A program made the translations under genes and the position numbers. Under the pieces are notes generated by a model that made no database searches, was not told the origin of the DNA, and saw only the letters and a list, made by a program, of their open reading frames with translations. A stretch of DNA of 58,328 bases, filler included, from Rhizaria sp. SCN 62-66 (taxonomy: Eukaryota): assembly GCA_001724265.1 (NCBI GenBank). It is 2 parts of 2 records of this genome, joined end to end, with 100 filler letters (N's around TTAATTAATTAA, not from the genome) between each part and the next. Parts side by side here need not be neighbours in the genome. Positions count along the whole stretch, not along the records: positions 1 to 29,225 come from MEDY01000383.1; 1 more part is not named here. One strand, written 5' to 3'. This document shows, one piece after another, positions 1 through 33,909 of the stretch; position 1 is the stretch's first letter, and every line of letters begins with the position of its first letter.

Positions 1-1808
1 CCGCCGCCGTGGCCGCGACCGCCGCGGCGGCGATGACGGCCGCGGGCGCGGGCGGCGGGCTCGCCCCGCGCGCGCCGCTGGGCCCCGGCGCCGGCGCAGG
101 CGCTGTGCCCTGCCCGCCGCCGCCCGCGCTCACCGCCGCAGCGGCTGCGGCGGCCAACGCGCTGTACGACGAGCGGTGCGAGGAGTACTTGGTGGTGTAC
201 AACCGGGGCCCGCTGACGATGTACATGATTGCGACGCCCGCGCCCACGGTCAGCGGGCGCAGCAGGCAAGCGCACCGCTCGGCCGCGCAGGCTCACTTCG
301 CCGAGATGAGGCAGCAGCAGCAGCAGCAGCAGCATAACACGGCGAACGTGGCGAATACGAACGTCGCTACCGCGCGGACGCACTCGCCGCGTCTGGGCTC
401 GACGACCGCTATCCCGTTGTCGCTGTACCGCAGGCTCGACGCGTTCCTCGCGCTCAACCTCCGCAAGCTGGCCGAGCTGCTCGCCGCCGCGCCCGCTGGC
501 GCCGCTGCCCCCACCCACAGCAGCGGCGGCGGCGGCAGCACCGGCTCTAACGGCACCGCGGCTGCGGGCAACAACAGCAGCGGCAGCGCGGCTGGCGCGG
601 CCGCGGGCGCCGGCGCCGGGTCTTCTGCGGTCTCCGCGACCGCTGATGGGGGCGCGAGCCTCGAAGCGGGGCCCGGCGAGACGCGGTTCATCTACTTCAA
701 CCAGCTCAACCTGGCCATCAAGTCCACGCTGGGCCCCTCGCAGCCCGCCGCCGGGCGCGGGCCCTCCGCCGCCGCCGCTGCGGGTTCGGGCTCGGGCGCC
801 GCCGCCGCTGCCGCCGCCGCCGCCGCCGCAGGCGCCGCCGCGGCCTCTGTCGCGGGCGCGGGCGCAGGGTCCGCGGCGGAGGCACTCTACCCGCTGCCGG
901 CCGGCTGCCCGCTCTCGGCGGCAGTCGTGCGCGTGCTGAACGGCATGCGCGCCGAGTTCGCCAAGGCCGACGAGCGCGCGGGCAGGGCAGCCGCGCTCAA
1001 GGCCAAGCTGCGCGCGGGGCGCGAGGCCGCCGCCGCGGCGGTCACCGTGGCCGCCGCGGCTGCGGCCGCGGTCGGGGGCAGTAACGGTGGTGTCGGCAAT
1101 GGCCGCAGTCTCAGTCCTAGCACGACGCTAGAGTCGGTGGTGGAGAGTCAGCGGCAGCAGCAGCAGGAGCAGGAGCAGAAGGAGAAAGAGCTGGGACAAG
1201 GGAAGCATGAGACTGAGATCGCTCTCGCTCCTGAGGCCGCACCTGAGACTCCTTTGGCTGCTGTCGAGACGACTCCGAAGGCGGAGACACCTAAGGCTGA
1301 GTCTGAAGACGAGGCTGAGCCCGAGCCTGAGACCCCTACTCTTGCGAGCGACACCGACGCTTCGAAGTCCCCTGCTGATGGCAACGACAAGGACGACAAG
1401 GGCGAGCCTCAGGACGAGGAGGCCGACTCTAAGCAAGAGCAAGAGCAGGAGCAGAAACCTGATCAAGAATCTACTACTGCTGAAGAGCAGGGACAGCAGG
1501 AGCAGCAAGAGGATGATGATCAAGAGCCCGAAATGGAGCGCGAGGCGGACGACCTGACTGTGGACGAGCTTGCCCGCGAGACCCGCGACGACGTCGACGT
1601 GTTGAACGACCTGCTGACGAGCGCGAGTCCTCTGGAGATCTGCGTCCGCACCAAGAGCGACGGCTGGGTCGTGGGCCGCCGCGCGGTCGAGTCCAAGCGC
1701 GAGTTCTACGTACTCATTGATGACGCTGCGTGCGCCAGTCTTGCTGACGTGCAAGTTGAAGTCGACAAGCTCACCAGGACCTTCTTCTACAACATCTTCA
1801 TCTTCTAA
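1..1808 (+). CDS. CCZ1: Vacuolar fusion protein CCZ1 (Mon1-Ccz1 Rab7 GEF subunit), 5'-truncated by the window edge
   Basis: Frame is open from the window start. Motifs RFIYFNQLNLAIKST and C-terminal LEICVRTKSDGWVVGRR...REFYVLID...LADVQVEVDKLTRTFFYNIFIF* match the CCZ1 third longin domain. Long Ala/Gly and acidic inserts. Stop TAA. Confidence 0.88.
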   Translation, partial: AAVAATAAAAMTAAGAGGGLAPRAPLGPGAGAGAVPCPPPPALTAAAAAAANALYDERCEEYLVVYNRGPLTMYMIATPAPTVSGRSRQAHRSAAQAHFAEMRQQQQQQQHNTANVANTNVATARTHSPRLGSTTAIPLSLYRRLDAFLALNLRKLAELLAAAPAGAAAPTHSSGGGGSTGSNGTAAAGNNSSGSAAGAAAGAGAGSSAVSATADGGASLEAGPGETRFIYFNQLNLAIKSTLGPSQPAAGRGPSAAAAAGSGSGAAAAAAAAAAAGAAAASVAGAGAGSAAEALYPLPAGCPLSAAVVRVLNGMRAEFAKADERAGRAAALKAKLRAGREAAAAAVTVAAAAAAAVGGSNGGVGNGRSLSPSTTLESVVESQRQQQQEQEQKEKELGQGKHETEIALAPEAAPETPLAAVETTPKAETPKAESEDEAEPEPETPTLASDTDASKSPADGNDKDDKGEPQDEEADSKQEQEQEQKPDQESTTAEEQGQQEQQEDDDQEPEMEREADDLTVDELARETRDDVDVLNDLLTSASPLEICVRTKSDGWVVGRRAVESKREFYVLIDDAACASLADVQVEVDKLTRTFFYNIFIF

Positions 1809-2534: not shown

Positions 2535-5377
2535 ATGTCTGCGACCGAGGAGCCTGACACCCCGCTCGAGGCCGTGCGCGGCCCCGACTCGGCCATGTCC
2601 TCTGCGCCCACCTTCGCCCCGCCGGCGCACATCCGCGACAAGGCTGTGCTCCAGTCCCTCGAGGCCTACCAGGCTATGTACAACCGCTCCATTGCTGACC
2701 CGACCGCGTTCTGGGACGAGCAGGCCACCAAGGAGCTCTCCTGGGTCCGCCCTTACTCCTCCGTCGTCTCTGGCAGCTTCCAGGTACGTCTCACTTTCAC
2801 TCGACATTTATCTTTCAAACAAATATGCTTTTGACATTCACTGTCAGCCTTGAATTTTAAGTTGCATTGCCTTATATTTTTTATTATTATTAATCTAACA
2901 CGCGCTCATCGCATCTCGTATATCTTCTCTCTATTTTTTGGATTGGACTCGTTTCTTTTTCGCTTCCTGTATCTTTCAGGAGGGCGACGTGGCCTGGTTC
3001 ACAGGCGGCGCTCTCAACGTCTCCTACAACTGCGTCGACCGCCACGCGATCGCGACGCCGGACAAGGTGGCGATCCTCTGGGAGGGCGACCACCCGAGCG
3101 ACATCCGCAAGATCACGTACGCCCAGCTCCAGCGTGACGTGAGCCGCTTCGCCAACGCTCTGCTGCGCCGCGGCGTCCGCAAGGGCGACACCGTCTGCAT
3201 CTTCATGCCCATGGTGCCCGAGGTCGCCGTCGCCATGCTCGCTTGCGCGCGCATTGGCGCCGTCCACGCCGTCGTCTTCGCCGGCTTCTCCGTTGAGGCG
3301 CTCCGTGACCGCATCGTCGACGGCAACTGCGTAGCCATCGTCACAGCCGACCAGGCACGTGAATCAAGCATACCTTCTGTGAATCCGTTCATATCCTGAA
3401 CCTGGTGTCATTTAACTGTGTTGTACTTGCTTTCATATTTTCAGTTTCAAACTCTTTCATCCTTTGCGATATCTCTAATTTTATCTTTCTTATTCCGCTG
3501 TCCTTGGTTCGCTCGCAACCTTTTCTTTGACCATAACAGGGCAAGCGCGGTGGCAAGACGATCCAGCTGAAGAAGATTGTCGACCGCGCACTGCTGGCCG
3601 ACGTTGACGCAGCCGTGACTTCGGTCCACACGGTGTTCACCCTGCAGCACACGGGCGCCGCCGACGTGGCCGCGAGCATGCATCCCAACCGCGACATCTT
3701 CTACGCCGACGCCGTTGCGCGCGAGCGGCCCGTGTGCCCGCCCGTGCCCGTGGAGAGCGAGGACCCGCTGTTCATCCTCTTCACTTCGGGCTCCACCGGC
3801 CGCCCCAAGGGCGTGCAGCACTCTAGCGCGGGCTACCTGCTCTACGCCAAGATGACGCACAAGTACATCTTCGACCTCAAGGACGACGACGTGTACGCTT
3901 GCGTCGCCGACGCCGGGTGGATCACCGGACACAGCTACGTCGTCTACGGCCCGCTCGCCAACGGCTCCACCACGCTCATGTTCGAGAGGTACGTGCTATG
4001 TTCGAATGCTCGAACAAGAACGAAATGGCACTTTTCACTGTCGAGTTGATATCTCTTTCATCTCTTTGAGACAAATTGAACTATTCTGCATTATCATACT
4101 TCACAATAATACCAACTTACGTAATTGCTTTTTATGATTAAATAACTGTTATCTCACCTCAATCCTGACTTAAACACTCACTGTTCCTTCATCTCGCTTG
4201 TATACCCTACTCAGCACCCCGATGTACCCCGATGCGGGCCGCTACTGGGACATGGTGCAGCGCCACAAGGTGACGATCTTCTACACGTCCCCCACGGCCA
4301 TCCGCTCGCTCATGCGCTTCGACAACTCCTTCGTCTCTCGCTACGATTTGTCGACTCTGCGCATCCTGGGCACGGTCGGCGAGCCGATCAACCCCGAGGC
4401 GTGGAAGTGGTACTACGAGGTCGTCGGCGGCGGCCGCGCGTCGATCGTCGACACCTACTGGCAGACGGAGACGGGCGGCATCGTCATTACGGCCGTGCCC
4501 GGCGCCGTCCCCGCCAAGCCCGGCGCGGCCGGTCTCCCCTTCTTCGGCGTCGCCCCCGTGTTGCTCGACGCCAAGACGGGCGCCGTCATCGAGGGCAACG
4601 ACGCCTCCGGGCTGCTCTGCCTCTCCGCGCCGTGGCCCGGCATGTTGCGGTCGTGCTGGGGCGACCACGCGCGCTTCATGAAGACCTACTTCGCGGCCTA
4701 CCCCGGTTGCTACCTCACCGGCGACGGCGCGTACCGTGACAAGGACGGCCACTATTGGATCACGGGCCGCGTCGATGACGTCATCAATGTGTCGGGCCAC
4801 CGCATCGGCTCCGCGGAGATCGAGTCGGCGCTTGTCTCGCACCAGCATGTCGCCGAGGCCGCCGTCGTGGGTGTCCCGCATGAGCTCAAGGGCCAGGCGC
4901 TCTTTGCTTACGTCACTCTCAAGCTCGACGCGACCATCACGAACATCTTCAACGCCGAGCTGCTGCTCACCGTTGCCAAGGAAGTCGGGTCCTTCGCCAA
5001 GCCCGATTACATCGTCGTCTGCCCCGCGCTGCCCAAGACGCGCTCCGGCAAGATCATGCGCCGCCTCCTCCGCAAGATCGCCTGCCAGGTACGAACATTT
5101 ACAGCTATATATTGTATTCTGTTGATATAATGTTATGAGATTATTGTTTTGTTCACTGTGGACTATGATCAACTTTATTTTTATCTTTCTACGTGTCTAT
5201 CTTGTGCTTCAATCGCTCACTCATGTGTACGCTTCTGCTCTTGCTATTGTGCTTCGCTCTCGACTACTATAGGAGACCGACTCTCTTGGTGACCTGACGA
5301 CTCTGGCGGACAAGGAGGTCATTGACGACCTGATTCCCCGCGTCAACGAGGTTTTTGCTCCCGTCAAGAAGGCGTAA
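2535..5377 (+). CDS. ACS: Acetyl-CoA synthetase (AMP-forming); exons 2535-2783, 2980-3354, 3540-3988, 4215-5088, 5273-5377
   Basis: [20 protein letters not shown]-binding [77 protein letters not shown]. All four splice junctions keep the frame; intron 2 is GC-AG. Stop TAA. Confidence 0.97.
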
Positions 5378-9289: not shown

Positions 9290-10809
9290 ATGCTGAACTC
9301 GCCCCTTTCCCACGACTCCGTGGTTGTCGCGTCCTCCTCCAAGCGCGCGCGCGCCCTGTCCCCCGCCACTGCCGCGCGCCTCGCCACGCAGGCCTACAAC
9401 GGGCCCGCCAAGGTGATGACCGACGCCGACGACGCGGTCGCCGGCCACGCGCTCTGCACGCTCGGCTGCAAGACGACGACCCACGAGACGCCCATGTGCC
9501 CCTACCCGTCGACCGCGTTCCCGCACACCGCCGCGCTCGCCACCGAGGCCGCCGCCACCGAGGCCGAGCGCGAGCCGAGCGTGGAGGAGATGCTCGCCGC
9601 CCTGCGCGGCCACGTCATCGAGGTCGAGGGCAACATCGGCTCCGGCAAGTCGACCCTCACCAACAACCTCTCCCGCTTCGCTCAGGCTGAGGCCACCGCC
9701 GTGGCGCTCGCCCAGGCCGCCACCGACGGCGCCGCGACCGTCGAGGAGGAGTATTCGGTCGTGCACGGCGAGAAGGTCAACGCCGTCTTCCTCAAGGCTT
9801 TTTACGAGAACCTCACGCAGTACGCCTTCGCCTTCCAGATGTACATGCTCACCACCCGCCTCTACCAGATCGACGAGGCCTCCCGCCAGGTACGCACAGC
9901 ATATATCTCATCGCAATGAACACGCTTTCAAGAAATATCTCACTCACACTTTAATAATTATATTATGTCCCCTATATGTGCTCATCCTCTTGATATATCT
10001 TCTATTTCCTTGTTTTCGCTCTCTCTTCTTTGCTTGACAAACTGAACTGACCCCTGCAGGCGCACAAGGAGAACAAGCTGGTGTTCCTGGACCGCGGCGC
10101 CGTGGGCGACGTGCTGTTCGCGCTGCAGAACTACAAGATCGGCAACATGTCGAAGCAGGACATGGCCGTGTACAAGTCGGTCTGCTCCGAGCGGCTCCCG
10201 GCCTCTCTGTCGGACAAGGTCGACGCCGTCGTCTACCTCGACGTCGCCCCCGAGACGTGCTGGTACCGCATGACCACTGTCCGCCAGCGCGAGGCCGAGG
10301 AGGGCGTGCCGCTGGCGTACCTCGACGGCATCGACTCGGTTTACTTCCACCTCCTCGTCGACTGGCTCGCCGCGCGCAAGGGCGGCTTCCACGACATGAA
10401 CATCGGCTCCGCCCCGCCCGTCATGGTTGTCCGCTGGGAACGCTTCGGCTGCCACAAGGCCGTGTTGCGCCAGCTCTACGAGCTGCTCCAGGGCCGCCGC
10501 AAGTCCCCCACTGTCGCCTTCACCACCGACGCCTCCGTCCCCGTCTCCGAGAGCGTCGACCTCGTGATCGAGAGCGAGGAGCAGGTCCAGGCCGCCGCGG
10601 CCGCGCTCAAGGAGCACGACGCGCTCACGGTCACCTGCGCCGCCTCGGGCGCCGCGCGCGAGGTCCGCTCCGTGGCCCTCAAGTGGGGGCTTGAGCACAG
10701 TGCGGCCTTCCGCAAGGTCGCCATGCACGTTCTGTCGGAGCAGGGCCACGTGCTCTTCTACGGCAAGGACACCGAGGTCGAGACCCCCGAGTACAACTGC
10801 GCCAAGTAA
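9290..10809 (+). CDS. Deoxynucleoside kinase (dNK family); exons 9290-9889, 10060-10809
   Basis: IEVEGNIGSGKSTL P-loop, FYENLTQYAFAFQMYMLTTR, FLDRGAVGDVLFA, VVYLDVAPETCWYRM..RQREAEEGVPLAYL lid region. Phase-0 GT-AG intron at 9890-10059. Stop TAA. Confidence 0.9.
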
Positions 10810-11806
10810 GTAAGTTACAAGAAAGCAAACAGGAAGCGCGGTGTGTTTACGCAAGCGTTCTCTCTTGCTCTTGCTCTTGCTGATGCTGATGCTGTGTATG
10901 TGTGCTCGATTTCTCTGTCTCTGATTCTATGTGTGTCGTCTCCTTCGTCTCTCAGGTGTTACTGCGATTGGTTGTGGTGTTCTGAGACAGGGGATGTTGT
11001 TATTCTTAGTACTTCTAGTCTCTCTCGTATAGTGTTGCTGCTGCTGCTGTTTATGTGATATAAGCTTTGTTTTGTTATTGTTGTTTGATTGTCTTGTCGT
11101 TTTAAGTGACAGGCATGAATGATTTCAATCTTAAAGTTTGCTTTTGTTGTTTATTAGAAATTGGCTTTGCTGATGTTGTGTTTGTATGTCCACTACTACT
11201 ACTACTAAGGCAGTGAGCGGGATCATTTCCCGAATCACTGCATTTTTTATCTAACAAAGCGTATAGAGCTCTCTGATTGCTCTTATTCTTTGACGAAAAA
11301 GTTTCCTCTCAGCAGTCTGCGCCTTAGCAACACGGCGAAGATGAGGTCGGCAAAGCCACTTTTGTGTTTCATAGTTTGAACGATAGTTCCTTTCACCATG
11401 TGTGAATACAATTAAAATCCATAATTATTCTTATTCTCACCTCTTCTGATTTAATAATTTTAATACGCTTGACGGAAGATAGACACGTTTTCTAGACCTA
11501 CAAAGCTCGCTCGCACTTTGCGTTCGGTCAAATCGTCCATTGCGCCTTTCCACCTCTGTCGCGCGCCACACTGGGCCTGTTTTCGGATTGTTTATGCCTA
11601 TCACGCTTGCCCAAAACTGTGCGAGTGCCTCGGCGTCGGTTTCAGACGGCTCCGACGCGGATTAGGAGCAGGCGTGCACTTCTCTCGCCGCGAAAAGGCA
11701 GGCCAACGCTGAAGCCGGCGCCCTCGTCTTCCTTTCGCTGCCCTGTGCGCCTCACAACGAGGCCGCTAACGGCAGGCCTTACGGCTTCAGTAGCAACAGT
11801 GAGGGC

Positions 11807-14179
11807 ATGAGCGCTGGGCGTGAGGGCCCGGGTTACAGCTCCGCGTTTGCGCGCGGCAATGCTGGCGTCAATAGCAGCAATCTTCCCCACGGCAGCAACA
11901 GCTCTCTCAGTCCCCGTCTGCGCACTCAGCTCTCGCTCTCAAGCGATCGCGCGAACTCTAGCTCGTCGACGTCGTCGTCGTATGCAGCGGCGGCAGCGTC
12001 GCTGTCGTGGCGGCAGCGAGAGCGCGTCACACTGCCCGCCTCGTTCGCCGTACAACGGCAACAGCTAAAACAGCAGCAGCAGCAGTCATTAAAGCAGCAG
12101 AATGAGCAAGAGCAGGAGCATGAGCGTGTGACACTGCCAACTCCGCCTAGCGCAACGAGTATGCGCGCGCAGATTAGTTGCAGCAACAGCTGCAGCGAAC
12201 GCGATGACGACGAGCAAAAGCAAGAGCAAAGACAGGAGCAGGAGCAGCATTACAGCTGTAGCAACGCCACGACTGACACTGACAACGGAAACACTGACAA
12301 TGGCCGTGAGCGTGAGCGTGAACGTGAGTCGGAGCCTCTGCAGTGCCGCATTTGCCTTTGCCCGGGCACGCCCGCACAGCGAGCGCCCGCTCCCAGCACT
12401 TACACCTACACTTACACTCAGACGCAGACTGAGAGCCAGCAGACGGACAGTCGCAGACACGGTTACAGTCGCAGTCAAGGTCACGCTCCCAGTCAGTCTG
12501 CCAGTAGCGCGGGCCACGGCGCGAGCGACGCTCTGATCGCGCCGTGCCGGTGCGCGGGCTCGCAGCGGTGGGTGCACCGCGCCTGTCTCGACCGCTGGCG
12601 CACGCACAAGTCGACTACTCCACGTAGTGGAGGCAGCGGCGGAGACGGCGATTGGGGCTGGGATTTGTCGCACGGGCTTGCTGGGCTCGGGCTAGGACTA
12701 GGAGGGCTTGGACTTGGGCAACAGCCGCAGCAACAGCGGCAACAGCAGGGGGCTGGGGAGCGGAGGTGGCAGCCGCCGCCGTCGCAACGGCAACGGCGCA
12801 ATCATAACAATAATATCGGCGGTGGCAACTTGGCTGGTGTCGTGTTACCATTTCCGTTTAATATGCTGTTTTCGGGTCTTGGTATTAATCACATGTTTGA
12901 TTCCCTCAACAACGCGAACAACCATGGCAACGATAACAACAATCGCGTCAACGGGAGTGGTTGGAACTACTCTGGAGGTGTCGGTCTCTTTGGCATGCCA
13001 TTTGCGTCTGCTTCATGGAGCTACACTTGGGGCGGCAACAACAACAGCAGCAGCAGTAACAGTAACCGGAGCGCTGCTATTCACAACAACACCAATGTTA
13101 ACATCAGCTCGTATACGAACTCTCGCCCAAACGCAAACTCAGATAGTTCGAGCTCAGGAGCTGCTGCTGCGCAGTCCTAGTCGCAGCCCCAGGCAGAGCC
13201 GCAGCCGGAGCCTGAGCCTGAGTTCCCGCCGGACACTGCGCATTTGTCGCGGGAGTTCTTTTACTGCACAACCTGCGGCCACCGCTACCGCTTTATAGAG
13301 AAGCACTCGAAGTCCGATGACCCCGCCACGACTCTCGCAGCCAGTGGTGATAAAGCCAGTGCCGCTGCTCACGGTCATTCAGCGAACACGCACGCAACAG
13401 CCGCTGCGGCCCAAAGCCAATCCAGTCACGCGGCATCCGCCGCAGTGCGGGGCCAGCCCAGTGCGGGCGCGTGGCTGCTGCTCGCCCTCGACCTCTGCGT
13501 CCCTGCGCTGCTGTTGCTGCTGCTGTGGCGCTGGCTGTACACGCTCTGCGCGGCGCCAAACGGGCCCCCGCTCCCCGCAGCCGCGCTCAGCGCACTGTTC
13601 TATTCACAGTTGCAACCGCAACCACAGCCTCAGCCTCGGCAGTCTTGGTTGCGCGGTGATGCGTCATCATCGCCGTCGTCGTCACTGGCGCGTCGTCCGC
13701 TGGCGCATCCCGCCCTGGTGTCGCTGCAGCTGCTGCTGGCGCTGCTGGGCGCGCTGCACTGGATGTGGCGCCTGCTCGCGTGGCGGCCCCCGGACGCGCT
13801 GGCCCGCTCCGCGCTGTGGCGCCGCGTCCCGCGCCCGCGCGCCGCGCCCCTGGTTGCGCTGCCGCTGGGCGGGCTCTGGGGCGCGCTGGCCAGTCTGCTG
13901 CTGCTCACCGGCGCGCTGGGCGCGGGCGCCGAGGCCGCGCGGGCCGTGCGCTGGCGCGTGGCGGCGAGGCTTGGCCGCACGGACGGCGTTCACGGCGCAG
14001 AGAGCACAGATGGCGCTCAGAGCGTTGAGAGCGCTGGGAGCGCGGATGGCGCTGAGAATGGTGTGCGAGGCAGTGCAACTGCAACTGCAGCAGCAGCGGC
14101 AGGAGCTGGAGTTGAAGTGCGTGGGAAAATGGCAGATGCAGAGAGGTTTCCTGTGGAAGATATGAGTTGTCTGCTCTGA
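11807..14179 (+). CDS. RING-CH (RINGv/MARCH-type) membrane E3 ubiquitin ligase, interrupted by one in-frame TAG at 13178-13180
   Basis: ORFs 11807-13180 and 13244-14179 share a frame. The first carries CRIC...LIAPCRCAGSQRWVHRACLDRWR; the second supplies the last ligand pair FYCTTCGHRYRF followed by about three hydrophobic segments. Could be a pseudogene, a base error or readthrough. Confidence 0.75.
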
Positions 14180-14766
14180 TCACCTCTGCAAGGAAATTTG
14201 CTCAATATCGAACAAGTTCGCTTCAAGTCTCAGTCACATGACTCTTAGTCGTTGAGCGCGATATCTACATGTGACAAAGACTTTTTTGAAACGCAACTAC
14301 CTAATATTCTGTTAATAAAAAAACTTGTTGTTGATATTGTAATGATTTTCTCTTCATTTTGGTGAAGATATCCCTGTGAATGTTGTTCTGACTTGAAGGG
14401 ATGCTGTTGGGGTTCCGAAAAAATCGGGCGAGGTTGTTGGAAACGACTCAGTTCGGTTGGTCGGTCAAAAACTGTCTGTGTGCATCCAGACAGTCGTTGG
14501 CAAGTCTTTTCCTTCTATTGTGTCATATATTTTTTTGTAAACTCGTCTTTGCATATTTTACAGCTTTAGAGCTATCGCGCCTCGCCTCCGGCTGGGCGTT
14601 GCCTACAGGCAGTAACGGCTCTTGGCCCAGTCACTCCAACTGCCCCCTCATTCATTCTCCAGAGCCCCAGCACGCGCCCCATCTTGACTCCCACTCACCT
14701 AACCTTATGTACCTGTCCACGTTCTGTTTCTTTTGTTGGCTTTCGCCCGCCCACTGCGCAGACGCG

Positions 14767-17700
14767 ATGCGCATCTTTCTGATCGATGTGTCATCGTACC
14801 TCGGCAAGGCCCTCAAAGCGGTCTTCACCGCCAACCAGCACGAGGTCGTCTCTCCCGCCTCCGTACGTCTCCTACCAGCTCAGAAACCTCGATTAACATA
14901 GAATATTGGAAAATTTTATGAAGATACCCGCGCTGTCTCGCTCCAACATGCTCCTGGCCGCTCTCTACTCTCACCCTTCGCTCTTTCTCTTTCTTTGCTT
15001 GCTCTCTCTGTACCTTATCTCTCTGCGTCCTACAGTGGGACAAGACCGAGCTGACGGAGCTGTTGTCGACGTCCGAAGCCATCATCCTCGACTTGGTCAA
15101 CTGCCCCGAGCAGTCGCACGCGATCATCACCCAGCTCAAACACGCCGCCGCCGAGGCCGAGGCCAACGACGGCTTCGCGGCCCCCATGGACCAGCTCCTC
15201 ATCGGCGTCTCCACCGTCCTCACCTGGGGCCGCACCTCCTCCAAGCCGGGTGGCAAGACCCCCGTGTTTAACGAGACGCAGTACAAGCGCCGCAAGTGTT
15301 CCCCGCGCTTCCGCGGCGTGCGCCAGCTCGAGACGCTGGTGCTCGCCGCGCAGCGCGAGAGCCTGTTCTCGTATGTCGTCGCGCCCGGCGTGCTCTACGG
15401 CAACGGCGAGTCCGCCTTCCACTTGCTTTTCCGCGACGCCTGGCTCTGCAACAAGGCCAACAAGGCAGGCGCGAACGCTGTGGCGAACCCCGAGAACGGC
15501 AACGCCAACGGCAAGACGGGCAGCGGTTTGATGATTCTGGGTGAAGGCAACAACGTGATCCCGACAATCCACGTCTCCGATCTCGCCGAGGCTGTGCTGC
15601 AGCTGCTCTACTCGCCGCCCACGCACACACAATACGTCGTCGCTGTCGACGGCTCCCGCGCCACGCAGCGCCAGATCGTGCGTGCCATCGCCCACCACCT
15701 CGGCCTCGGCGCCGGGGCCGCGGTGACCGTGAGCAAGGACGACCCGCGGCTCGTGCAGGCGCTCCTCGAGCTCGACCCCGCCTCCGCCGCCGCCGCCGAC
15801 AGCAACAACAGCAACAACGCGGACGGCAACAACGACGACGGCGCTGGCGGTGCCGCTGGTGACGCCGACGGCACGAACGCCGCCGCCGCCGCCGCGACGG
15901 GCGCTGCCCCGCTGGTGGCCCCGTCCGACACGGCGACCGCGGGCGTCGGCTCCGGCGACCCCGAGGTTCTCCTGCTGAACCTGGCCTTCCAGACGCAGTC
16001 GTGCACGCTTGCGCAGCTGCCGCTGCAGTGGCGTTGCCTCGACGGGCTGCCCGCGGCGCTGCCCGCTGTGCACAAGGAGTTCCTCGCGGCCCGCAAGCTG
16101 CGGCCCGTGCGCGTGCACATCGCCGGCGGGCCCGGCTCGGGCAAGTCGCTCTACGCGACGCGCATCGCCAACGGACTGCGTCTGCCGCATGTGACCGTCG
16201 CGCAGTGCCTCGAGGACGCCGCGGCCAGTAAGACGCAGCTCGGCGACGCCATCCGCCGCTTCTTCGCAGAGGCCGGCGCACAGAGCGCCGCCGCCGCGGG
16301 GGGACGCTTCGGCGCCGGCTCCGCCTCGGTCTCCGCCGCCGCCGCCGCCGCCGCCGCCAAGCGCGGGTCTGCCGTGGGCGGTGGCGCTGCGGGCAGCGGC
16401 AACAGCGCCGTGGCCGCGGGCGTCGCCGGCGGCGCGCGCAAGCCGGGCGCGCCGCTCTCGGTCTCGGCCGTGGCTGCCGCCGCGGGCGTTGGCGCCGGCA
16501 CCGCGGGCGCGGGCAAGGCCGGCAAGCCCGGCGTGCTGGGCGGCCGCGCGGGCGCCGGGGCCGCGGGCGCCGCGGCGGGCTCCGCTGAGGACACGTATCT
16601 CGGCCTGCGGCTGCCGGCCAAGCTGGTCTGCGAGGCCGTGCGGCGCCGGCTGCGGTCCCCGGAGTGCCGCAACAAGGGCTTTGTGCTCGACGGGTTCCCG
16701 CGCACGGCCGAGGAGGCGAAGCTGTTGTGGCGCCAGCGCGCGCGCGTGTTCGCCGAGAGCGAGGACGGCGACGACGGCGGCGGCGTGGACCCCCACGGCG
16801 ACGACGGGCAGGGCGGCGCGTCGGCATTTGCGGGCGAGGACGCCGGCGAAGGTGCGGGCGTGACGCTCGACGCCGAGGGCAACGTTGTCGAGCGCGAGGA
16901 CATCACGTGGCTGCAGGACGACGACGAGGACGACGACGGCGACGAAGAGGGTGAGAACGGCCACCCCGACGGCGGCGACGAAGAGGAGGACGACGACGAC
17001 GAGGAGACCATCGAGCGTCTGCGCATGCTCGAGATCCTGCAGGCTGAGATCGAGGCCGAAGAAGAGGAGGCCGCCTTCGCCGACAACAGCACGGGCGCCG
17101 GAGCCGACGGCGACGACTCGGGCGCGCCCAAGCCCGTTGCGGCCCGCGCCTCGGGCGCCGCGCGGCTGCGCCGGCTGGGCGGCCCGCTGCTGCGCCGCTC
17201 GCGCCGCCTCGACCCGGCCACACGCGTCGACCTGTGCATCTTCCTGCACGTGACCGAGGCCGAGGCCGCGCGCCGCCTGCGCGAGCTGCCGCAGCGCGAC
17301 GTCATCGAGCGCCACAACGACCAGGAGGGCTTCCGTCGCCGCTGGGCGCGCTGGACACTGCAGCAGGGCGCGCTGGGCGTCGCCTCCACGCTCGCCGCGC
17401 GCGCGCTCAACAACAACGGCTCCGTCGCCGGCGGCGCGGCCGCGCAGCAGGGCGGCGCGCAGCAGCAGGGCTCCATTTATGACTGGGTCGACGTCGACGT
17501 GCTCGAGGTCGGCCAAGACGTCGCCGCCGACGTGTCCCGCGCGCTGGGCGTGATCCAGGCGTACGTCACGCGCTTGGGCAAGCCGTTCAACTACTTCCCG
17601 GCGCCCGAGGATGTCGCGGCCGCGCGCGCCGAGCGCGACGCCGCCGCGCGCGCCGCGGCGCAGCGTGCGCAGGCCGCGCGCATCGCCAAGGCGCGCGCCG

Positions 17701-17957
17701 AGGCGGCCGAGCGCGCGCGCAGGGAGGCGCACGACGCGCAGATGCGCCAGACCGTGCTGGAGCAGGACCGCAAGCTCGTTGAGGCGTGCTCGCTGCCGCT
17801 GCGCCAGTACTTGGTCACGCATGTCGTGCCCGCTGTGGTCGATGGACTGCTGGATGTGTGCAAGACGCAGCCGCAGGATCCCGTGGACCACCTGGCCGAG
17901 TACCTGTTCAAGATTGCGGTCAACGGCAGCACTTTCACTGTTGACGACCAGGCGTGA
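14767..17957 (+). CDS. AK7: Adenylate kinase 7-like (axonemal): N-terminal Rossmann-like domain, ADK domain, C-terminal Dpy-30 motif; exons 14767-14862, 15036-17957
   Basis: MRIFLIDVSSYLGKAL, LIGVSTVLTWGRT, YVVAPGVLYGNGE, GEGNNVIPTIHVSDLA, P-loop GGPGSGKS, CRNKGFVLDGFPRT, Dpy-30 PLRQYLVTHVVPAVVDGLLDVCKTQPQDPVDHLAEYLF. Phase-0 intron. Stop TGA. Confidence 0.92.
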
Positions 17958-18477: not shown

Positions 18478-21400
18478 ATGTCCTCTTCCGTCGCGAAGCC
18501 ATCGCCCGCCTCCCAGCAGCCCGGCTTTAGCACCGCTCATCCTTCTTCACAATCACCCTCAGCAGCAGCAACTGGAGCGAACAACGCGACCGCAGCTAAC
18601 ACAAGCACTCTGTCCACGCCTGCAGCACCCGTGGGATCCCTCGCGCGTCACGGCCACGACTTCCTGGCCTTACTGCGCGAGTCCTTCCAGCCCGCGAGCG
18701 CGGCGTCGCTGCTCTCCGCGCGCGCGCGCGAGCGGCGGCAGCTGGCGGCCTTCTTCGGCGTCACGCTGCGCCGCGGCCGCAGCGGCTGCGTCTACGTCAC
18801 CGGCGCGCCCGGTACCGGCAAGACCATGCTTGTGGCGGCCGCGCTGGAGGAAAACCGCCTTGCGTTTGGCATGGGAGCCTTTCCGGGGCACGTGCTGCCG
18901 CAAAAGGTCGCCGTGAATGACAACATCACCACCACAACAGAGTCGGACTCCTCGAGTCGCAGCAATGACGCTGACCGTAACGCTGCTGTCGCCCCAAGTG
19001 TTAAGCGCTCTGCCCGCTCAGCCTCAAGCGCTAGAAACAGTGCGTCACAGTCGCACTCGTTGCGCTCACGGTCCTCACTCAGCTCGCAGTCTTATGGTTC
19101 AGAGATGCCTGCTTTTTCTCTCGTCTGGCTGAACGCTATGTCCATCGCTGACCGCACTGTCCGGCTCGAAGCCGTGCTCTCCGCTGACGCGCGCGCTGCG
19201 GCCGCGGCGGCTGCGGCCAGTGCTGCCAGGCTTGCGGCGGGCGGCGGGCCGGCCGTGGCTCTGAACAGTAGAAACAGCAATTACTACGGCGGTCACAGCA
19301 AGAGTAAGGTGGGGCGTCCGAAGCGTCGGCACCAGTCAGACTCGGAAGACTCTGATGACGATGACGACTTTCACGACAACGATGGCGCTGACAGTGACGA
19401 CGACGACCTGTACACAACCACAAAACAAGCCAAGACTAAGACTCAGGCTGTGGCCAACAGCGAGCCAGAGAATGAGAATGGGAACGAGACTGCGACAACG
19501 ACTGAAACCGCAGTGACTGAAACTGCAGTGACTGAGACTGCGAGCAATGCTGCTGTACAGAGTGGTGGGGACAACGAGTCCCTCACGATGCGCGCCCGTA
19601 TCAAGGCCGCACAGCAGAAACAGCAACAACAAACCAACAACAGCAGCCTCGCCGTCGACAGCGACAGCGACTACAGCGACGACGTTAACGACGACGACAC
19701 TGACAATGATGATAACAATCACGCTCTCGGACGCACCCGCCGCCGCCAAGACCGCGACGACGACGGCCAGCACACCTACGCAGCCGTCACCGCGGCGGGC
19801 CTCGCCGATGCGCAGGACCGGCGTTACGCTCTGCGCTGCCGGCGCCCGATGACCGTGCTCGTGATCGACGAAGTCGACCAGCTGCTGCTGCGGTCCAAGG
19901 CCGCACTCATGCGCGTGTTCCAGGCCCCGCGGCGCGCGTTCTCCTCACTCGTCATCGTCGCCATTGCCAACAAGGTCACGCTGACGCTGGACGACACGTT
20001 GCCCGTGCTGATGCAGGCTGGACTGGCACCGCCCACGGTCGTTTTTGCACCCTACGAGAGGGAGTGTCTGATCGAGATCTGCAAGTACCGAGTTGCCGCC
20101 GCGGTCACCGCTATGGCGAAACAGCTGCGCAGCGACGCAACGGCGCTCGGCTACACTGAAAGCGCTTCAACGAAGGCCACAACCAAGGCTAGGGCGACTC
20201 GGCAGTCCGCCAAGACAAAGGGCAAAATGCCAGCAAGTCGCCGCAACAGCAGCCGCAGCTACAACAACAACGGAGACTCCGACTCTGACGGGTCTGACTC
20301 TGATAGTGACGACAACGGCGAAACCGCGGCGGCGGCGTTGTCCCGCGCGTGCCGCCACGCGCCAGCCCTGGCCTTTTCCCCCGACGGACTCACGCTGATG
20401 GCCATGTTCGTTGCCAAGGAGTCCGGCGACGCGCGTCTCTTCCTCGCACACTGCACCGACGCGCTCACCGACGCGGGTGCATTCGCCGCGGCTGCCGCGT
20501 GCCCGCACGCGCGCGCCGTCAAACGCGTCGTGGCCGCGCACGCCGCGCTGCGCCGCGTCCGCGCCGCCGAAGCGCACGGCTACACCGTCTGCGCTCGCAG
20601 TAGCGCGCTGTACAACGACGACGATGGCGCGGCGGCGTTCGCGGTGCGGCGGCGCGAGAGCCCCCAGGAGCGGGCCGCGGCCGTCGCCACCGCGCGCGCC
20701 ACCCTGGCGGCCGCGGCGGAGGCGCGGCACGGCGTCGAGTGCTCCTGCGTGGCCGGGACTCTGTACGGCGCGCTGCTGGCCGTGTACTGCTCGGCTGCGT
20801 TTGGCACCGGACACGACGAGGCCATAGCAAAGCAGGGCGGCGCTGCGAAGCTCGCTCTCGTCGCTATGGCGCAGTCCACCGCCGGCAGTGGCAGTGCCGC
20901 TGCTGCTGTGGAAAGCACTGTGAAGCCGACTACTGCTGCGGCTGGGACTGTGCTGCCGGTGGTGTCATACCGGCAGGCGTCGCAGGTGGTGACGCGGCTC
21001 AAGGGCGACAAGAGCGTGGTGCGTTTAGTGGCGAACCTGCCGCGTGCGCAGCTGCTGCTGCTGCTCGTGCTCACCATGGCCCAGCGCTTCCACGTTGACG
21101 GCGTCGTGGGGGAGTTCACCACGATTGCGGTCTTTGCCAAGAAGTGTGCAGGGATCATGAAGGGGCTCGGCATGCCCGATATGACTGCAGTTGCCGTCGA
21201 CGAGACGCTTGAACTGCTCAGGGTACGGACAAAACAATGACAAGGTATCTTAACGCTTTATCTTGTTATTGAAGCATTACTCTCACTCTTTATTCTTATA
21301 TATTTTGCTTTTTTCTCGTTTTATACAGTGTTCTGGCTCAGTGGACGTGCTCCGCGGCACTGGGCCCGGTGGCAAGCGCTCTGCAGCCGCTGTAGCAGCG

Positions 21401-22181: not shown

Positions 22182-25100
22182 ATGGAGACGCCGATGAAGA
22201 AAAAGGACGCGAACGCGCCGCCCGCGTTCCCGTTCTCGCCCTCAGTCACAATGGAGAAGATGGTCAACAAGGACAAGGAAATCCTTGACTTTGACAAGGA
22301 TATCCCGCTCGAGTCGATGATGACGGGTGCTGAGTTCACCCTCTACCGCCTGCCCGCGACCGCCACCGCCGCCACCGCCGCCTCAGTGCCCGTCGAGCGC
22401 GTGCGCATCTTCATGTACTACCGCCGCGACGTTCAGTTCGGCACGTTCTACTTCCGCGAGCTCTCTTCCTCCGCCGCGGCGGCCCCGCTGCCCGCGCGCT
22501 CCGAGCCCGCGCGCGCCGGTGACCACATCCTGCCTCTGTCTGCGCTCACCGACATCTGGCTCGGCAAGCAGACTGACACGCTGATGCACGCCGACGTGGC
22601 CGCGGCCGAGATCGAACGCTGCCTCTCGATCTTCTACACGTCCTCGGAGAACCCCGTGTGCCTGGACCTCGAGGCTGAGTCCGAGGAGCTGCTAGCGCTC
22701 TGGCTTATCGGCATTCACTACGTCATGAACAACGGCGGCCGCCAGCTCACCAAGAAGGACATCGAGGAGCAGGCTGCCGCCGCCGCCGCCGCGGATGCCG
22801 CCGCCGCGTCCTCCTCCTCCACAGCCGCCGCTGAGCCCGCCCCTGTGTCGACCGTGCCCGTCAGCGCGGCCCCGCACGACAACATCGACCTCGCCAGCGC
22901 TAAGGTCCAGAAGCCCAAGAAGTGGCTCCAGCAGCGCCGCTTTTCCATCCAGGACTACGCGCCGCGCTCCGCCATTGCGGCCGGCGGCATTGCGGCCGCC
23001 TCGCCCTACCGCGCGCCCCTCGTGGCCGCGCCCCTGGGCGGCGGCGCAGTCGACTCCGCCGTCGCCGGCGCTGTCACCGCCAAGCTGTCCCAGCTCAAGA
23101 CCGCGCTCCAGAGCACCGTCGCGCCCGCCGTGCACGCCGTCGCCGCCGCGCAGGCCGCGCACGCACAGGAGACGCGCGCCGCCGTCGCCGCGATGCGCAG
23201 CGAGATGCACACCGCGCTCTCCTCGGTGCTCGCGGCCGCCAAGGCGGAGAAGCAGCAGCAGGACGCGACGCAGACCGCGCTCATCGTCGCGCTCGAGAAG
23301 GAGCGCGCAGAGCGCAAGGTGCTGCTGAACCAGATGATCGAGGAGCACGGCAACATCCGCGTCTTTGCACGCGTGCGCCCGCTGCTGCCCTTCGAGGCCG
23401 GAAACGAGTCGTGCGTCTCGGTCACCGACGACGTCACTGACGACGCCATGACGGGCAACGGCAACAGCAAGCACGGCGGCGCGGGCAAGAGCGTCCTCGC
23501 AGCCATCGCAGGCGACCAAGAGGGCGTCGTCGAGGTCGCCGCAGCTGGCGCCAACAAGCCCGGCGGCGCCTTCATCTTCGACAAGGTCTTCGGCGCGCGC
23601 GCTGCCCAGGAGACCGTTGCCGAGGAGATCGTGCCCTTTGTGCACTCGTGCGTTGACGGCTACAACGTCTGCATCTTCGCCTACGGCCAGACGGGCTCCG
23701 GCAAGACGTACACGATGGAGGGCACTCGCGAGCGCCCCGGCGTCAACTACCGCGCGCTCGGCGAGCTTTTCTCGCGCACCGCCGCGCTGCAGCAGCAGCA
23801 CCAACAGACGGGCGGCGTCGGCGGCTTGACTTTCTCCATAGAAGTCTCGGTGGTGGAGATCTACAACGAGCAGCTGCGCGACCTGCTTGCACGCGACCAG
23901 GCGGCCAACAAGCTCAAGATCGTGCACGACCAAACCGCGGGCGTCTACGTCGCCGGGCTGGCGCGTGTGCCCGTGCACTCGGTCGACCAGGTCCGCTCGC
24001 TGCTTGAGAAGGAGGCCTACCCCAATCGCGCCGTGGGCACCACCAACATGAACGCGCAGTCCTCGCGCTCGCACTGCGTCCTCTTCGTGCACCTCGACCA
24101 GTGCAACGAGGCCACTGGCGCCAAGACCTCCGGCAAGCTCGTGCTCATCGACCTCGCCGGCTCCGAGCGCATCGACAAGTCCGGCGCGACGGGCCAGGCG
24201 CTCGCTGAGGCGCAGAACATCAACCAATCTCTGTCTGCGCTGGGCAACGTGATCCAGGCGCTGCAGAGCAAGAACAAGCACATCCCTTACCGCGACAGCA
24301 AGCTGACGGACATGCTCTCCGACTGTCTCGGCGGCAACGCCAAATGCCTCATGTTCTGCAACGTCAACCCGGCGATGTCGAATCAGAACGAGACGATGTG
24401 CTCTTTGCGCTTCGCCATGCGCGCGCGCAACACTGCGCTTGGCAAGGCGCAGAAGAACGTTAAGCCCGGTGTCTCCGCGGCCGCCAGCGCGGCGCAGATC
24501 GCCGCTCAGGTCGAGCTCAAGAAGATGCAGACAGCCTTCGCGGAGCTCTCTGAGGCCGCCAAGCTCAAGGACAAGAAGATTGCTCAGCTTGAGCTTTCCT
24601 CCGCGTCTGCCTCTTCCTCCGCGAGCGCCAACGCCGCAGCCGCGGCCGCGTCGCGCCAGATCGCTGAGCTCACCGCAAAGCTCGACGCGCAGAGCAAGGA
24701 GCTCGCGCGCCTGCGTTCCGCGCCTACCGTCGCCGCCACCGCCGCGCCCGCGCCGCTGTCGCTCGCGCGCTCCAGCGCCGCGGGCGCGTTCGGCCGCGTC
24801 GCGCGCCTCGACATGGCCTCCGTGATCGACGCCGACCTGGGCGCCGGCCCGTCGACCCCGCGCTCCCGCGCTTCCGTGTCCCGCTCCAGCTCCGGCGCCG
24901 TCCAGCGCAAGCGCCGCAGCTCCGACATGGCGGGCTCCTTCGGCGACGATGGCGCGAGCGAGAACTCGGCCCCCGTCCGCGGCTCCGTCGCCCTCGGCGG
25001 CGCTGCCAAGAAGAGCACTTTTGCGGCCACACGCACCGCGTCCGCGCGCTCCAGCGTCGCCGGCGCCGGCGCGGCCGGGCTCCCGCTCGGCGCCCGCGCC

Positions 25101-25271
25101 GCCGCCGCCGCGGGCGCTGGCGTGACCGGCACTCCCAACCGTACGCGCGCTGCGGGTGTCGTGCTCGGTGCCGCGCGCGGTGCCGTCGGCAACGGCGTCG
25201 CCGCTGGCGCTGCCGCTGGCGCTGCGGGCACCCGCACTCCTGTGCGCCGTGCCGCCACCTTCCGCATCTAA
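22182..25271 (+). CDS. Kinesin-14 (KIFC-like) motor with N-terminal PH-like domain and low-complexity tail; start codon uncertain
   Basis: Kinesin-14 neck ERKVLLNQMIEEHGNIRVFARVRP, DGYNVCIFAYGQTGSGKTYTM, VEIYNE, NAQSSRSH, LIDLAGSER, HIPYRDSKLT. Coiled coils on both sides of the motor. Stop TAA. Confidence 0.93.
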   Translation: METPMKKKDANAPPAFPFSPSVTMEKMVNKDKEILDFDKDIPLESMMTGAEFTLYRLPATATAATAASVPVERVRIFMYYRRDVQFGTFYFRELSSSAAAAPLPARSEPARAGDHILPLSALTDIWLGKQTDTLMHADVAAAEIERCLSIFYTSSENPVCLDLEAESEELLALWLIGIHYVMNNGGRQLTKKDIEEQAAAAAAADAAAASSSSTAAAEPAPVSTVPVSAAPHDNIDLASAKVQKPKKWLQQRRFSIQDYAPRSAIAAGGIAAASPYRAPLVAAPLGGGAVDSAVAGAVTAKLSQLKTALQSTVAPAVHAVAAAQAAHAQETRAAVAAMRSEMHTALSSVLAAAKAEKQQQDATQTALIVALEKERAERKVLLNQMIEEHGNIRVFARVRPLLPFEAGNESCVSVTDDVTDDAMTGNGNSKHGGAGKSVLAAIAGDQEGVVEVAAAGANKPGGAFIFDKVFGARAAQETVAEEIVPFVHSCVDGYNVCIFAYGQTGSGKTYTMEGTRERPGVNYRALGELFSRTAALQQQHQQTGGVGGLTFSIEVSVVEIYNEQLRDLLARDQAANKLKIVHDQTAGVYVAGLARVPVHSVDQVRSLLEKEAYPNRAVGTTNMNAQSSRSHCVLFVHLDQCNEATGAKTSGKLVLIDLAGSERIDKSGATGQALAEAQNINQSLSALGNVIQALQSKNKHIPYRDSKLTDMLSDCLGGNAKCLMFCNVNPAMSNQNETMCSLRFAMRARNTALGKAQKNVKPGVSAAASAAQIAAQVELKKMQTAFAELSEAAKLKDKKIAQLELSSASASSSASANAAAAAASRQIAELTAKLDAQSKELARLRSAPTVAATAAPAPLSLARSSAAGAFGRVARLDMASVIDADLGAGPSTPRSRASVSRSSSGAVQRKRRSSDMAGSFGDDGASENSAPVRGSVALGGAAKKSTFAATRTASARSSVAGAGAAGLPLGARAAAAAGAGVTGTPNRTRAAGVVLGAARGAVGNGVAAGAAAGAAGTRTPVRRAATFRI

Positions 25272-29225: not shown

Positions 29226-29325
29226 NNNNNNNNNNNNNNNNNNNNNNNNNNNNNNNNNNNNNNNNNNNNTTAATTAATTAANNNNNNNNNNNNNNNNNNN
29301 NNNNNNNNNNNNNNNNNNNNNNNNN
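29226..29325. other. Artificial contig-joining linker: 44 N + TTAATTAATTAA + 44 N
   Basis: Exactly 100 nt. TTAATTAATTAA puts stops in all six frames and is a known pseudomolecule spacer. The coding sequence to the right begins mid-gene. Confidence 0.97.
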
Positions 29326-31286: not shown

Positions 31287-31536
31287 CGTTTTACCATTAC
31301 ATAGCACTTAAAATACACTAGTATATCTTTATATCAAATGAAATAGTCGACAAACATGGTTTTACGCGTATTCTTATTCATAAAAATATTCGTTGAGACA
31401 ACACAAAACAGCAAACATCAACACACAGCAAACATAAAAAATACTACACATTGAGTATGGCACCACACAGACGTCACTAAAAGTCACAATCAAAACGTAT
31501 CCGACAAGCTACAACAGCTATCAGCATATCGTCTTA

Positions 31537-33369
31537 CTACGTGCTGGTTGCCTTCTGCGCGATGTACCAGGCGGGGAACTTGCGTCCCTCGCGGCCCGCC
31601 TCGTCGGTATTGTCGTCGATGAGCTGACAGACCTCGGCGAAGGGCGCCAGCACGTTTACTTCGTGGCCCATGCGGTCCGAGATAAAGCGAACAAGCCGCG
31701 CGATGTCGAGCTGCTCCGCCATGCCGGCCACGACCCACGCGCTGACGAGCGCGTCGGGCAACTTGTGGGTCACTAGTGCCGCGAAGCCCGCGCGCAGCGT
31801 GCGGTCATGCATCAGTAGCGCCGCCGCGGCCGCCCGCCCGCCTGCGCGCAGGTGCGCGTCGCCAGGGGTAGCCGCGAAAGGCACGAAGACGGCCGCGGCT
31901 TCGGCGGGCGAGCCCACGAGGGCGTGCGCGCGCGCGTCGGCGAGACACATGGCGTGCAGGCGCAGCGAAGCCGCCATGACGTCGCGCACGGGCACCGTCT
32001 TTGAGAAGGCCTTAGCCACCGTCAGCGCGCCCGCCTCGGCGGCCAGCTGCAGCGTCGTGGGGCCCGCGCGCGCCATGCGCGCCAGGTCCGCGATGGCGTT
32101 GACAAGCTCGGCGAGCGCGATGGTGGCATATGGCGCCACGGCGGCCTCGGCGCCGCTCGAGGCGGGCTTGCGGCGCGCGGCAATCAGCACGCTCTGCACA
32201 CCCGTCAGCAACGGTTCGCCCGTCGCGCAGAGCTGCGCCGTGAGCGCGAGCACGTCGGCGTAGGGCGCGAGGCCCATTCCGTGGTGCGCGATGAACGCGA
32301 CGGCGAAGCTCAGCGCGCGCGCGGCGAGCGACACGGCCGTGGTGCCCGCCGGCAGCGCGCCCGCGGCGGCGGCCGCCGTGGCCGCGGCAGAAGCGTCGGC
32401 GAGCAAGCGCGGCAGTGTGGCCGTAAGCGCGCGCTGCGCTGCGACGATGTCGAGCGGCGAGAAGTCCTCGGCGGAGGCGCGGAAGGCGCTGGGGCGCGTG
32501 AAGCGGTCGCCTAGCAGGTAGCCCGTGGGGCCTAACGCGCGCGTGCCCTGCACCAACGCGAGCGCGCGCTCAAGCGTGGTCTGCGTGCTGACACCCTGCA
32601 GACGCGCGTCGAGCGCGGCCGCGATCTCGGGCTCCGCCACGGCCTTCTCGATCGCCTCGGCGTTGTACGGGGGCATGCAGGGCGCGGGCACGGGCTGCCC
32701 GTAGGCGGCGACGAACTCCTCGGGCCCGGCACCGGGCAGCGCCTCGTAGTTGCCCAGCACGGCGAAGAGCGCATCGGCGACCTCGACGGTGCGTGACGTC
32801 GCGTGCGCGGGGTCCGTCAGCAGCGCCGTCAATAGCGTCGTCAGCGTCGCGCCCAGCCCAGCGACGGGCGCCGACAGGCCCGCCAGCCAGTGGTGCACGG
32901 CCTTGAGCCCCTGCAGCCACAGCTCGTCCGAGTGCGCGGGCGCAGAGACCAGCTGCGTGGCCACGCGCGTGGCGTAGCCCACGGCGTTGTCGCGCGACAC
33001 GGCGGCGTTGGGCGTCTCGTAGGTGTCGAAGGCCAGCAGGCGCAGGCACGCCGCCGCGTTGCACGCCACGAGCGGCGCCGAGTGCGCGACGAGAGGTAGC
33101 AGCGCCTCAGTGTAGGTCTTGGTGTTGAGCTTCGTGGGGACCTCGGCGGGCGTCCACATGACCTCGAGCAGGACGCGCAGCGACTGCAACGCAGGGAGCA
33201 AATCAGCCGCAGCCGTGTCAGCATCCGAGACAAACTCAGTCACAGCGGGCGTCGAAGTAACGCCAGCGGCGCGCGTCGCCGCAAGGCCGGAGCGCAAGTC
33301 AAACTGCAAAAGCCGACTAACCTCGGTCGACGATGCGATTAGCAGCGGGGCGGGCTTGGTGGAAGCCAT
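31537..33369 (-). CDS. Uncharacterised alpha-helical (ARM/HEAT-like) protein, 610 aa
   Basis: Single long ORF with coding-like GC3, amphipathic Leu/Ala helices and AT-rich flanks. Ends TAG immediately followed by TAA (31536-31534). Confidence 0.7.
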   Translation of the reverse strand: MASTKPAPLLIASSTEVSRLLQFDLRSGLAATRAAGVTSTPAVTEFVSDADTAAADLLPALQSLRVLLEVMWTPAEVPTKLNTKTYTEALLPLVAHSAPLVACNAAACLRLLAFDTYETPNAAVSRDNAVGYATRVATQLVSAPAHSDELWLQGLKAVHHWLAGLSAPVAGLGATLTTLLTALLTDPAHATSRTVEVADALFAVLGNYEALPGAGPEEFVAAYGQPVPAPCMPPYNAEAIEKAVAEPEIAAALDARLQGVSTQTTLERALALVQGTRALGPTGYLLGDRFTRPSAFRASAEDFSPLDIVAAQRALTATLPRLLADASAAATAAAAAGALPAGTTAVSLAARALSFAVAFIAHHGMGLAPYADVLALTAQLCATGEPLLTGVQSVLIAARRKPASSGAEAAVAPYATIALAELVNAIADLARMARAGPTTLQLAAEAGALTVAKAFSKTVPVRDVMAASLRLHAMCLADARAHALVGSPAEAAAVFVPFAATPGDAHLRAGGRAAAAALLMHDRTLRAGFAALVTHKLPDALVSAWVVAGMAEQLDIARLVRFISDRMGHEVNVLAPFAEVCQLIDDNTDEAGREGRKFPAWYIAQKATST

Positions 33370-33909
33370 TGTGCACTTGAGCTCGATGGGGTGTTGCTGA
33401 ACAGAGTGATGTGTTCCAGGAGGTAGAAAGCAGTGAGGGAACGTGTCACCAGCTGTGTAGAAAATAGAAAAATGTTTGAATATAAGCTTTGTTTCATATA
33501 AAATGGTTGCTATAACTGTGCGAGCATGGGTTTTTCCAGGATGGCTTGTGATATCAAAGCATCACTTCCCACCACGAATCACACTTTGGTTGGTGAGCTG
33601 TGGCTGGACAGACAAGCAACATGACTGTCTAGCAAAACTAGTTGACTCAACCTACGTGGGATCTGATCAAAAGGAGAATGCAACTTTTCTGTCCCCAATG
33701 ACAACAACGTATAATTCACTGCTGTTTTAGAAAAATGTGGACACTTGTTTGTAAAATGTAGTACACTCGTCTGCTGTTTTCATTGGTCCCAACCACTGCG
33801 AACGGTCACCTTCACGTTCATACCTCACACAGTCCTACTATGTTGCTTTTTTTAATTGCAGCAAACCCAGCAGGAAACAAGCGCACGTGGGGAGACTACA
33901 GTTGCCCCC

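Follow-up and report, generated by a model that had tools for sequence, protein, structure and literature searches.

An in-frame TAG interrupts a RING-CH gene in the window, i.e., the whole stretch of DNA analysed here (58,328 nucleotides, filler included, from Rhizaria sp. SCN 62-66). The locus raises the question of whether this organism reads UAG as an amino acid, removes the codon from the mRNA, terminates leakily at it, or carries a nonsense change or an error in the assembled copy. Counted from 11666, the frame runs to 14179 (+) and is closed by a TGA at 14177; the only other stop in it is the TAG at 13178-13180, which is thus the one internal stop of the ORF that starts at the first in-frame ATG (11807..14179). 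Direct reading of positions 13166-13201 (gcg cag tcc TAG tcg cag ccc cag gca gag ccg cag) confirmed the codon on which the original prediction was built.

The TAG splits one RING-CH domain into a part with zinc ligands 1-6 and a part with ligands 7 and 8 plus the membrane portion. The upstream part carries the first six ligands (CRIC ... PCRC ... WVHRAC), together with a low-complexity expansion of the first loop, and the last two (CTTC) lie 3′ of the stop, so that the C4HC3 ligands are encountered in order across it. Pfam RINGv (PF12906) matches the upstream part with an E value of 1e-8 and 35.6 bits (gathering score cut-off, 21.6), over profile positions 11-42 of 47 only. A custom profile of 15 family members, applied to the 591 ORFs that the window contains in six frames, matched the upstream ORF at positions 12-44 (55.7 bits, E 1.2e-16) and the downstream ORF at positions 46-68 (SREFFYCTTCGHRYRFIEKHSKS; 5.8 bits, i-E 0.44, rank 3 of 591). 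The latter match is weak alone but colinear, since it starts exactly where the former ends. Behind it, the downstream ORF contains three hydrophobic 19-mers with Kyte-Doolittle means of 1.62-1.68, values that derive from hydropathy windows rather than from a topology predictor. Both the significant match to the family model and the membrane segments after the RING domain place the gene in the RING-CH/RINGv family. The canonical short loop spacing is absent: the C2-C3 loop measures 63 residues, where most members inspected have about 12-14, and the C6-C7 loop about 226, where most have 15. The original prediction that the TAG separates ligands 1-6 from the last CxxC and the transmembrane part, leaving both halves otherwise intact, is therefore borne out by the colinear profile positions, the lack of any other internal stop, and the membrane 19-mers and coding periodicity retained 3′ of the TAG. 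All eight ligands would share a single polypeptide only upon readthrough of the TAG, or if the living allele lacks it. The features of the locus and the introns of the window are collected in Table 1.

Table 1. Coordinates of the RING-CH locus and of introns in the window
Feature	Position	Strand
Short uORF (standard code), same frame as main ORF; ATG 11594, TAG 11663	11594..11665	+
Part of RING-CH gene ahead of the TAG, from first in-frame ATG	11807..13177	+
RING-CH core ahead of insert, LQCRICLC ... ALIAPCRCAGSQRWVHRACLDRWRTHKS	12341..12613	+
Low-complexity insert, in frame, 211 codons, contains the TAG	12614..13246	+
In-frame TAG in (NCN-SAG) hexamer repeat	13178..13180	+
Last part of RING-CH domain, SREFFYCTTCGHRYRF; zinc ligands 7 and 8	13247..13300	+
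Three hydrophobic predicted membrane-spanning segments	13457..13900	+
Terminal TGA of RING-CH gene; protein end ...DMSCLL	14177..14179	+
Introns	2784-2979, 3989-4214, 9890-10059, 14863-15035, 21223-21328, 30566-30704, 34021-34129	+
Introns	40677-40514, 27593-27448, 7792-7644	-

Two features lie at the margins of the ORF. The uORF comprises 23 codons upstream of the RING-CH ORF, and reading its TAG as sense would lengthen the protein by 71 residues. At the other end, a GTGCGT donor-like string occurs at 14117 (+), 60 nt 5′ of the TGA, in a stretch with a reduced GC3 of 0.28-0.38. The true end of the gene may therefore differ from these last 20 codons, though the terminal ...CLL resembles the termini of the family.

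A search of 1.84 billion representatives returned 63 hits at an E value of ≤0.001; among the best stretches listed, every one falls within query residues 127-306, i.e., the RING core. In fetched sequences, the family follows the pattern CRICL..(D)LIAPCxCxGSxKWVHRxCLDRWR...(R)AFSxCTEC...Y, then membrane segments, and many members end in ...LGLL. The window gene shares with these RING-CH E3 ligases of protists and plants, which are distantly MARCH-like, the C4HC3 ligand order, a near-identical core (ALIAPCRCAGSQRWVHRACLDRWR), a CTxC plus aromatic motif after the core, downstream hydrophobic segments and a C-terminus in LL, its ...DMSCLL resembling the ...LGLL of the family. It differs from them in the 63 residues of loop 1, in the extreme length of the last loop (15 residues in most members inspected, up to about 19) and in an insert carrying an in-frame TAG. 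None of the hits inspected as sequences (26 of the 63) spans the TAG site, and in a second search, which gave 328 relatives, none of the 80 kept matched beyond query residue 289. Likewise, 177 pattern matches yielded no confirmed ortholog with the insert. The downstream ORF alone has as its first hit in the ESM Atlas (0.79) a MARCHF5-like cluster with RINGv on 30% of its members; with a score short of the 0.9 level, this match serves as a lead only. Homology searches of predicted-protein collections in the near and shorter length classes retrieved no product of the RING-CH gene, and exact look-up found neither any of five ATG-started table-11 products nor either of two readthrough products with TAG as Q (ATG starts only, not GTG or TTG). 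Their absence has no bearing on which base other samples carry at the site.

The stop lies outside everything that the family conserves. The insert falls between family-profile positions 44 and 46 and is absent at that point from all 15 members used for the profile; a distant member, P0043, has about 40 low-complexity residues in the same loop. Repeats in phase with the codons and rich in G, Q, N and S make up this insert, whose GC content is 0.42-0.68 and whose GC3 is about 0.53-0.65, as compared with a GC3 of 0.82-0.97 in the conserved blocks of the gene. The conserved 3′ part of the core reaches 0.85-0.94, and both membrane segment 1 and segments 2 and 3 together lie at 0.82-0.97, with 0.60-0.72 in the low-complexity stretch between them. 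Across the insert the frame holds one stop in 224 codons, and at most one stop was found in 61 of 5000 dinucleotide shuffles (P 0.012). The +1 frame contains only 2 stops, and openness of the coding frame is therefore partly compositional. The TAG itself belongs to a run of nine NCN-SAG units (TRF rows for the hexamer repeat, 13185-13222), in which the SAG slot is filled by CAG four times, GAG four times and TAG once. The repeat slot where the original prediction expected CAG is thus real, but it is Gln- or Glu-like rather than strictly Gln, and it does not correspond to a conserved Gln column.

Whether splicing might remove the TAG can be judged from the introns of the window. Nine of them are unambiguous by ORF continuity (109-226 nt, GC 0.26-0.48), including one whose removal unites positions 1-71 and 73-181 of the Pfam profile for a deoxynucleoside-kinase domain. 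Their donors read GTACG[TC], once GTATGT, and their acceptors consist of a pyrimidine-rich tract and AG. Introns of the window are, in general, short (106-226 nt) and AT-richer than exons, with an unusually uniform donor (GTACG[TC], apart from one GTATGT and one GTACGG) and CTAAC/CTGAC branch-like strings inside. Donor and acceptor position weight matrices trained on the nine introns gave these 8.7-14.4 bits and 6.7-14.8 bits, respectively, so that every one of the nine totals 17.8 bits or more. Nine introns make a small training set, but the gap is wide: the best of 207 frame-keeping GT/GC-AG pairs across the TAG totals 0.2 bits, and no donor of at least 6 bits occurs on the + strand between 10806 and 14863. 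No U12-type donor was seen near the insert by eye. The TAG is, therefore, not removed by any usable intron of the organism's own type, as anticipated from the lack of an in-phase consensus donor. An atypical intron or other processing could still act on it, and one candidate is a GC-AG pair at 12600/13196 that would join ...CLDRW to QPQPEPEPEF...REFFYCTTC. Its GCACGC at 12600 resembles the GTACGC donor of the organism with T changed to C, the insert sits exactly where the family lacks residues (profile 44 to 46), and GC over 12806-13165 (0.42-0.53) is closer to intron or intergenic than to exon values. However, besides the poor scores, such an intron would be 597 nt long with a G+C-rich 3′ end, as opposed to the 109-226 nt and pyrimidine-rich ends of real introns, and it would consist of a frame open beyond chance. 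The codon-phased repeats have counterparts in the first-loop insert and in other proteins of the window, and P0043 provides a precedent for low-complexity residues in this very loop. Removal of the TAG from the mRNA is, on these grounds, quite improbable.

Genome-wide sense use of UAG for Gln or Leu, of the kind known from Iotanema spirale and the rhizarian exLh, was looked for in the other genes. We built 17 other gene models, all provisional, in 28 segments (Pfam support for eleven, five without a Pfam hit, and G2 read as an acetyl-CoA synthetase by eye only). These models hold 13,926 codons, with 396 CAG and 46 CAA (442 Gln codons) and no in-frame TAG, where position-specific composition leads to the expectation of about 123 TAG, 15 TAA and 14 TGA. 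Coding frames elsewhere in the window thus avoid TAG just as rigorously as they do the other two stops. The segments had been picked as open frames and every upstream boundary was therefore checked as well, which uncovered no other TAG flanked on both sides by coding-like sequence. The 18 provisional gene ends of the window use TAA (9), TGA (8) and TAG (1), the least certain of them (10807, 46351 and 53200) each coinciding with a weak donor-like string. In the sole TAG-ended model (31540..33561, - strand; 674 aa, no Pfam family), TAA is the next codon (31534-31539, tandem TAG-TAA), so that these 18 ends include no clean example of TAG as a terminator. At a TAG share of 0.2 among terminators, which is an assumed typical value, the binomial probability of finding at most one TAG in 18 ends is about 0.10. 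The scarcity of TAG at gene ends is thus not significant and suggestive at most. The 58 kb window contains no tRNA gene, hence no tRNA-CUA, no Rfam match and no eRF1 gene.

Known UAG-only reassignments look different from this picture. According to PMC5304391, they carry 1.6 to 5.4 in-frame UAGs per gene, with 384 in 71 genes of exLh (UAG to Leu) and 204 in 126 genes of Iotanema spirale (UAG to Gln), in the latter about 8% of Gln codons. The same paper describes Amoeboaphelidium as reassigning UAR, i.e., both codons; the plain use of TAA as a terminator in the window rules out a code of that type here. What the RING-CH locus has in common with the UAG-only codes is an in-frame UAG in intact coding sequence, with TAA and TGA serving as terminators. 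In those codes, the UAGs often occupy conserved Gln or Leu columns, whereas here a single one is found in 18 models, within an unconserved repeat, and recurrent in-frame UAGs in many genes at conserved columns are lacking. In favor of reassignment there are, apart from the Gln-like slot, the fact that the only TAG gene end in the window is directly backed by another stop and a NUBP1 tree, thinly sampled in named lineages, that places the organism on the side of three rhizarians. Set against 442 Gln codons without one TAG, the far richer known cases, the position outside any conserved column and the absence of a tRNA-CUA gene from the window (58 kb only), these points make reassignment barely tenable. 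An intermediate "codon capture" stage is highly unlikely. In this uncultured eukaryote, a near-unassigned UAG would then be all but lost as a terminator, and unconstrained repeats would be where it begins to return, rarely and under tolerance, as a Gln-like sense codon or a leaky one, the RING-CH TAG being one instance.

The original prediction had entertained decoding of UAG as Gln or leaky termination, with a nonsense allele or an error as an equally possible alternative. Its remark that the other long ORFs contain no internal TAG holds throughout the 17 models. Together with the unconserved site, this renders a nonsense change or an error a better reading than sense use of UAG, and the two are no longer evenly matched. 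Of the checks proposed with it, the count of TAG at conserved columns leaves only the one codon in an unconserved insert, and the search for tRNA-CUA was negative over the 58 kb. What survives of the decoding proposal is its leaky variant, in which UAG would be decoded here at a useful rate to yield a full-length ligase, either because a near-cognate tRNA (Gln, Tyr or Lys) reads through this particular site or because UAG termination is weak in the organism generally. Several observations are compatible with it, namely, the intact and colinear gene halves, the strong codon periodicity kept 3′ of the TAG, the Gln/Glu slot in the repeat, the presence of part of the locus in a polyA RNA run, and a TAG that ends only 1 of 18 provisional genes, where it is backed by an immediate TAA. 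Against it, the bases that follow the TAG are TCG CAG, and to our knowledge no known stimulatory readthrough motif matches TAG TCG CAG. No downstream structure stands out either; the fold of 13178-13300 has a z score of 0.16 relative to shuffles, of which 114 in 200 were at least as stable. Neither a stimulatory 3′ context nor an RNA structure thus marks the site. In addition, what readthrough normally provides is a C-terminal extension, not the repair of a divided domain. Several of the gene ends are also provisional, and the scarcity of TAG among them is non-significant (P ~0.10). Leaky or site-specific decoding of UAG has no positive support, and we deem it unlikely. Should UAG termination nonetheless be weak or nearly abandoned in this organism, the locus would afford a rare view of the intermediate state predicted by codon-reassignment theory, one that would be testable in samples recurring in wastewater reactors over ten years.

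We favor, with a probability of roughly 0.55, the explanation that the TAG is a CAG>TAG nonsense allele, the mark of a young pseudogene or a consensus error. According to this explanation, the gene would specify an E3 ubiquitin ligase of the RING-CH (MARCH-like) type that is anchored in the membrane and whose zinc-binding loops are greatly enlarged by low-complexity sequence. In the assembled copy, a CAG (or GAG) within the slippage-prone (NCN-SAG)n repeat of the last loop would have become TAG. Under the standard code, translation would then end after ligand 6, and the product would lack the final CxxC and all membrane segments. The assembled copy might represent a recent loss-of-function allele (of the strain or of one diploid haplotype) or a pseudogene of very recent origin, or else the metagenome assembly may have introduced a consensus error. 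We infer both the CAG>TAG direction and the loss of function. The direction is plausible because the homologous slots are CAG or GAG and a single transition from CAG yields TAG. The GC3 of the membrane segments behind the TAG indicates full coding periodicity, which fits a very recent event.

In its single, transition-accessible stop, otherwise intact ORF and mutable repeat, the locus resembles the class of premature termination codons (nonsense alleles or unitary pseudogenes), and the present data distinguish no difference from that class. That this is the only internal stop and that it splits a colinear RING-CH domain further support a nonsense change, whereas the 332 intact codons 3′ of the TAG count against one. 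A polyA RNA run contains 38% of the words sampled over the whole stretch 12500-13900. The locus may thus give rise to RNA, as would not be required of a dead gene. If a nonsense allele or an assembly error is indeed at hand, its message is one of caution only, in that a lone in-frame stop in a repeat-rich insert is no evidence of a code change. The RING-CH gene is a striking example of zinc-finger loops inflated by low-complexity sequence.

The window as a whole is gene-dense, GC-rich and eukaryotic, with coding sequence at about 70-80% GC (GC3 0.8-0.9) and spacers at about 45-50% GC. Runs from bioreactors, wastewater and activated sludge, dated 2015 to 2025, contain near-identical DNA. In predicted-protein collections, the NUBP1 of the window was found on 6 contigs, the longest of 104 kb. 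Its kinesin was found on 5, and a variant of at least 90% identity is present as well. The ESM Atlas hits of the kinesin carried no taxonomic information. The kinesin-14 gene (22194-25268, +) encodes a protein identical to that on 5 ENA contigs, and a second, 1025-aa member of its 90% cluster lies on another 11 kb contig, which points to a close strain or sister species in public assemblies. A NUBP1 tree of 22 rows unites the window with metagenome proteins of 77-82% identity and separates it, with 100/100 support, from animals, fungi and Amoebozoa, whereas three rhizarians fall on its own side; the tree rests on a single gene, and these lineages are the only named ones in it. A guess that the introns are of fungal type finds no support in this tree.

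Other genes of the window deserve mention in their own right. A very long Myb-domain gene (36050-41142, -), with an ORF of 1574 codons and an upstream exon, has a GC content of 77-82%, and antisense frames stay open across it for hundreds of codons, so that open frames alone mean little here. Two 44-N runs (29226-29269 and 29282-29325), either scaffold gaps or masked stretches, are located at the 5′ end of a + strand gene model. The gene at 14743-17957 (+) encodes an adenylate kinase that carries a fused Dpy-30 motif at its C-terminus, and the one at 3-1808 (+) a protein with an Inturned longin-like domain. Proteins of both kinds are usually tied to cilia, and this pair of genes suggests that the organism is flagellated.
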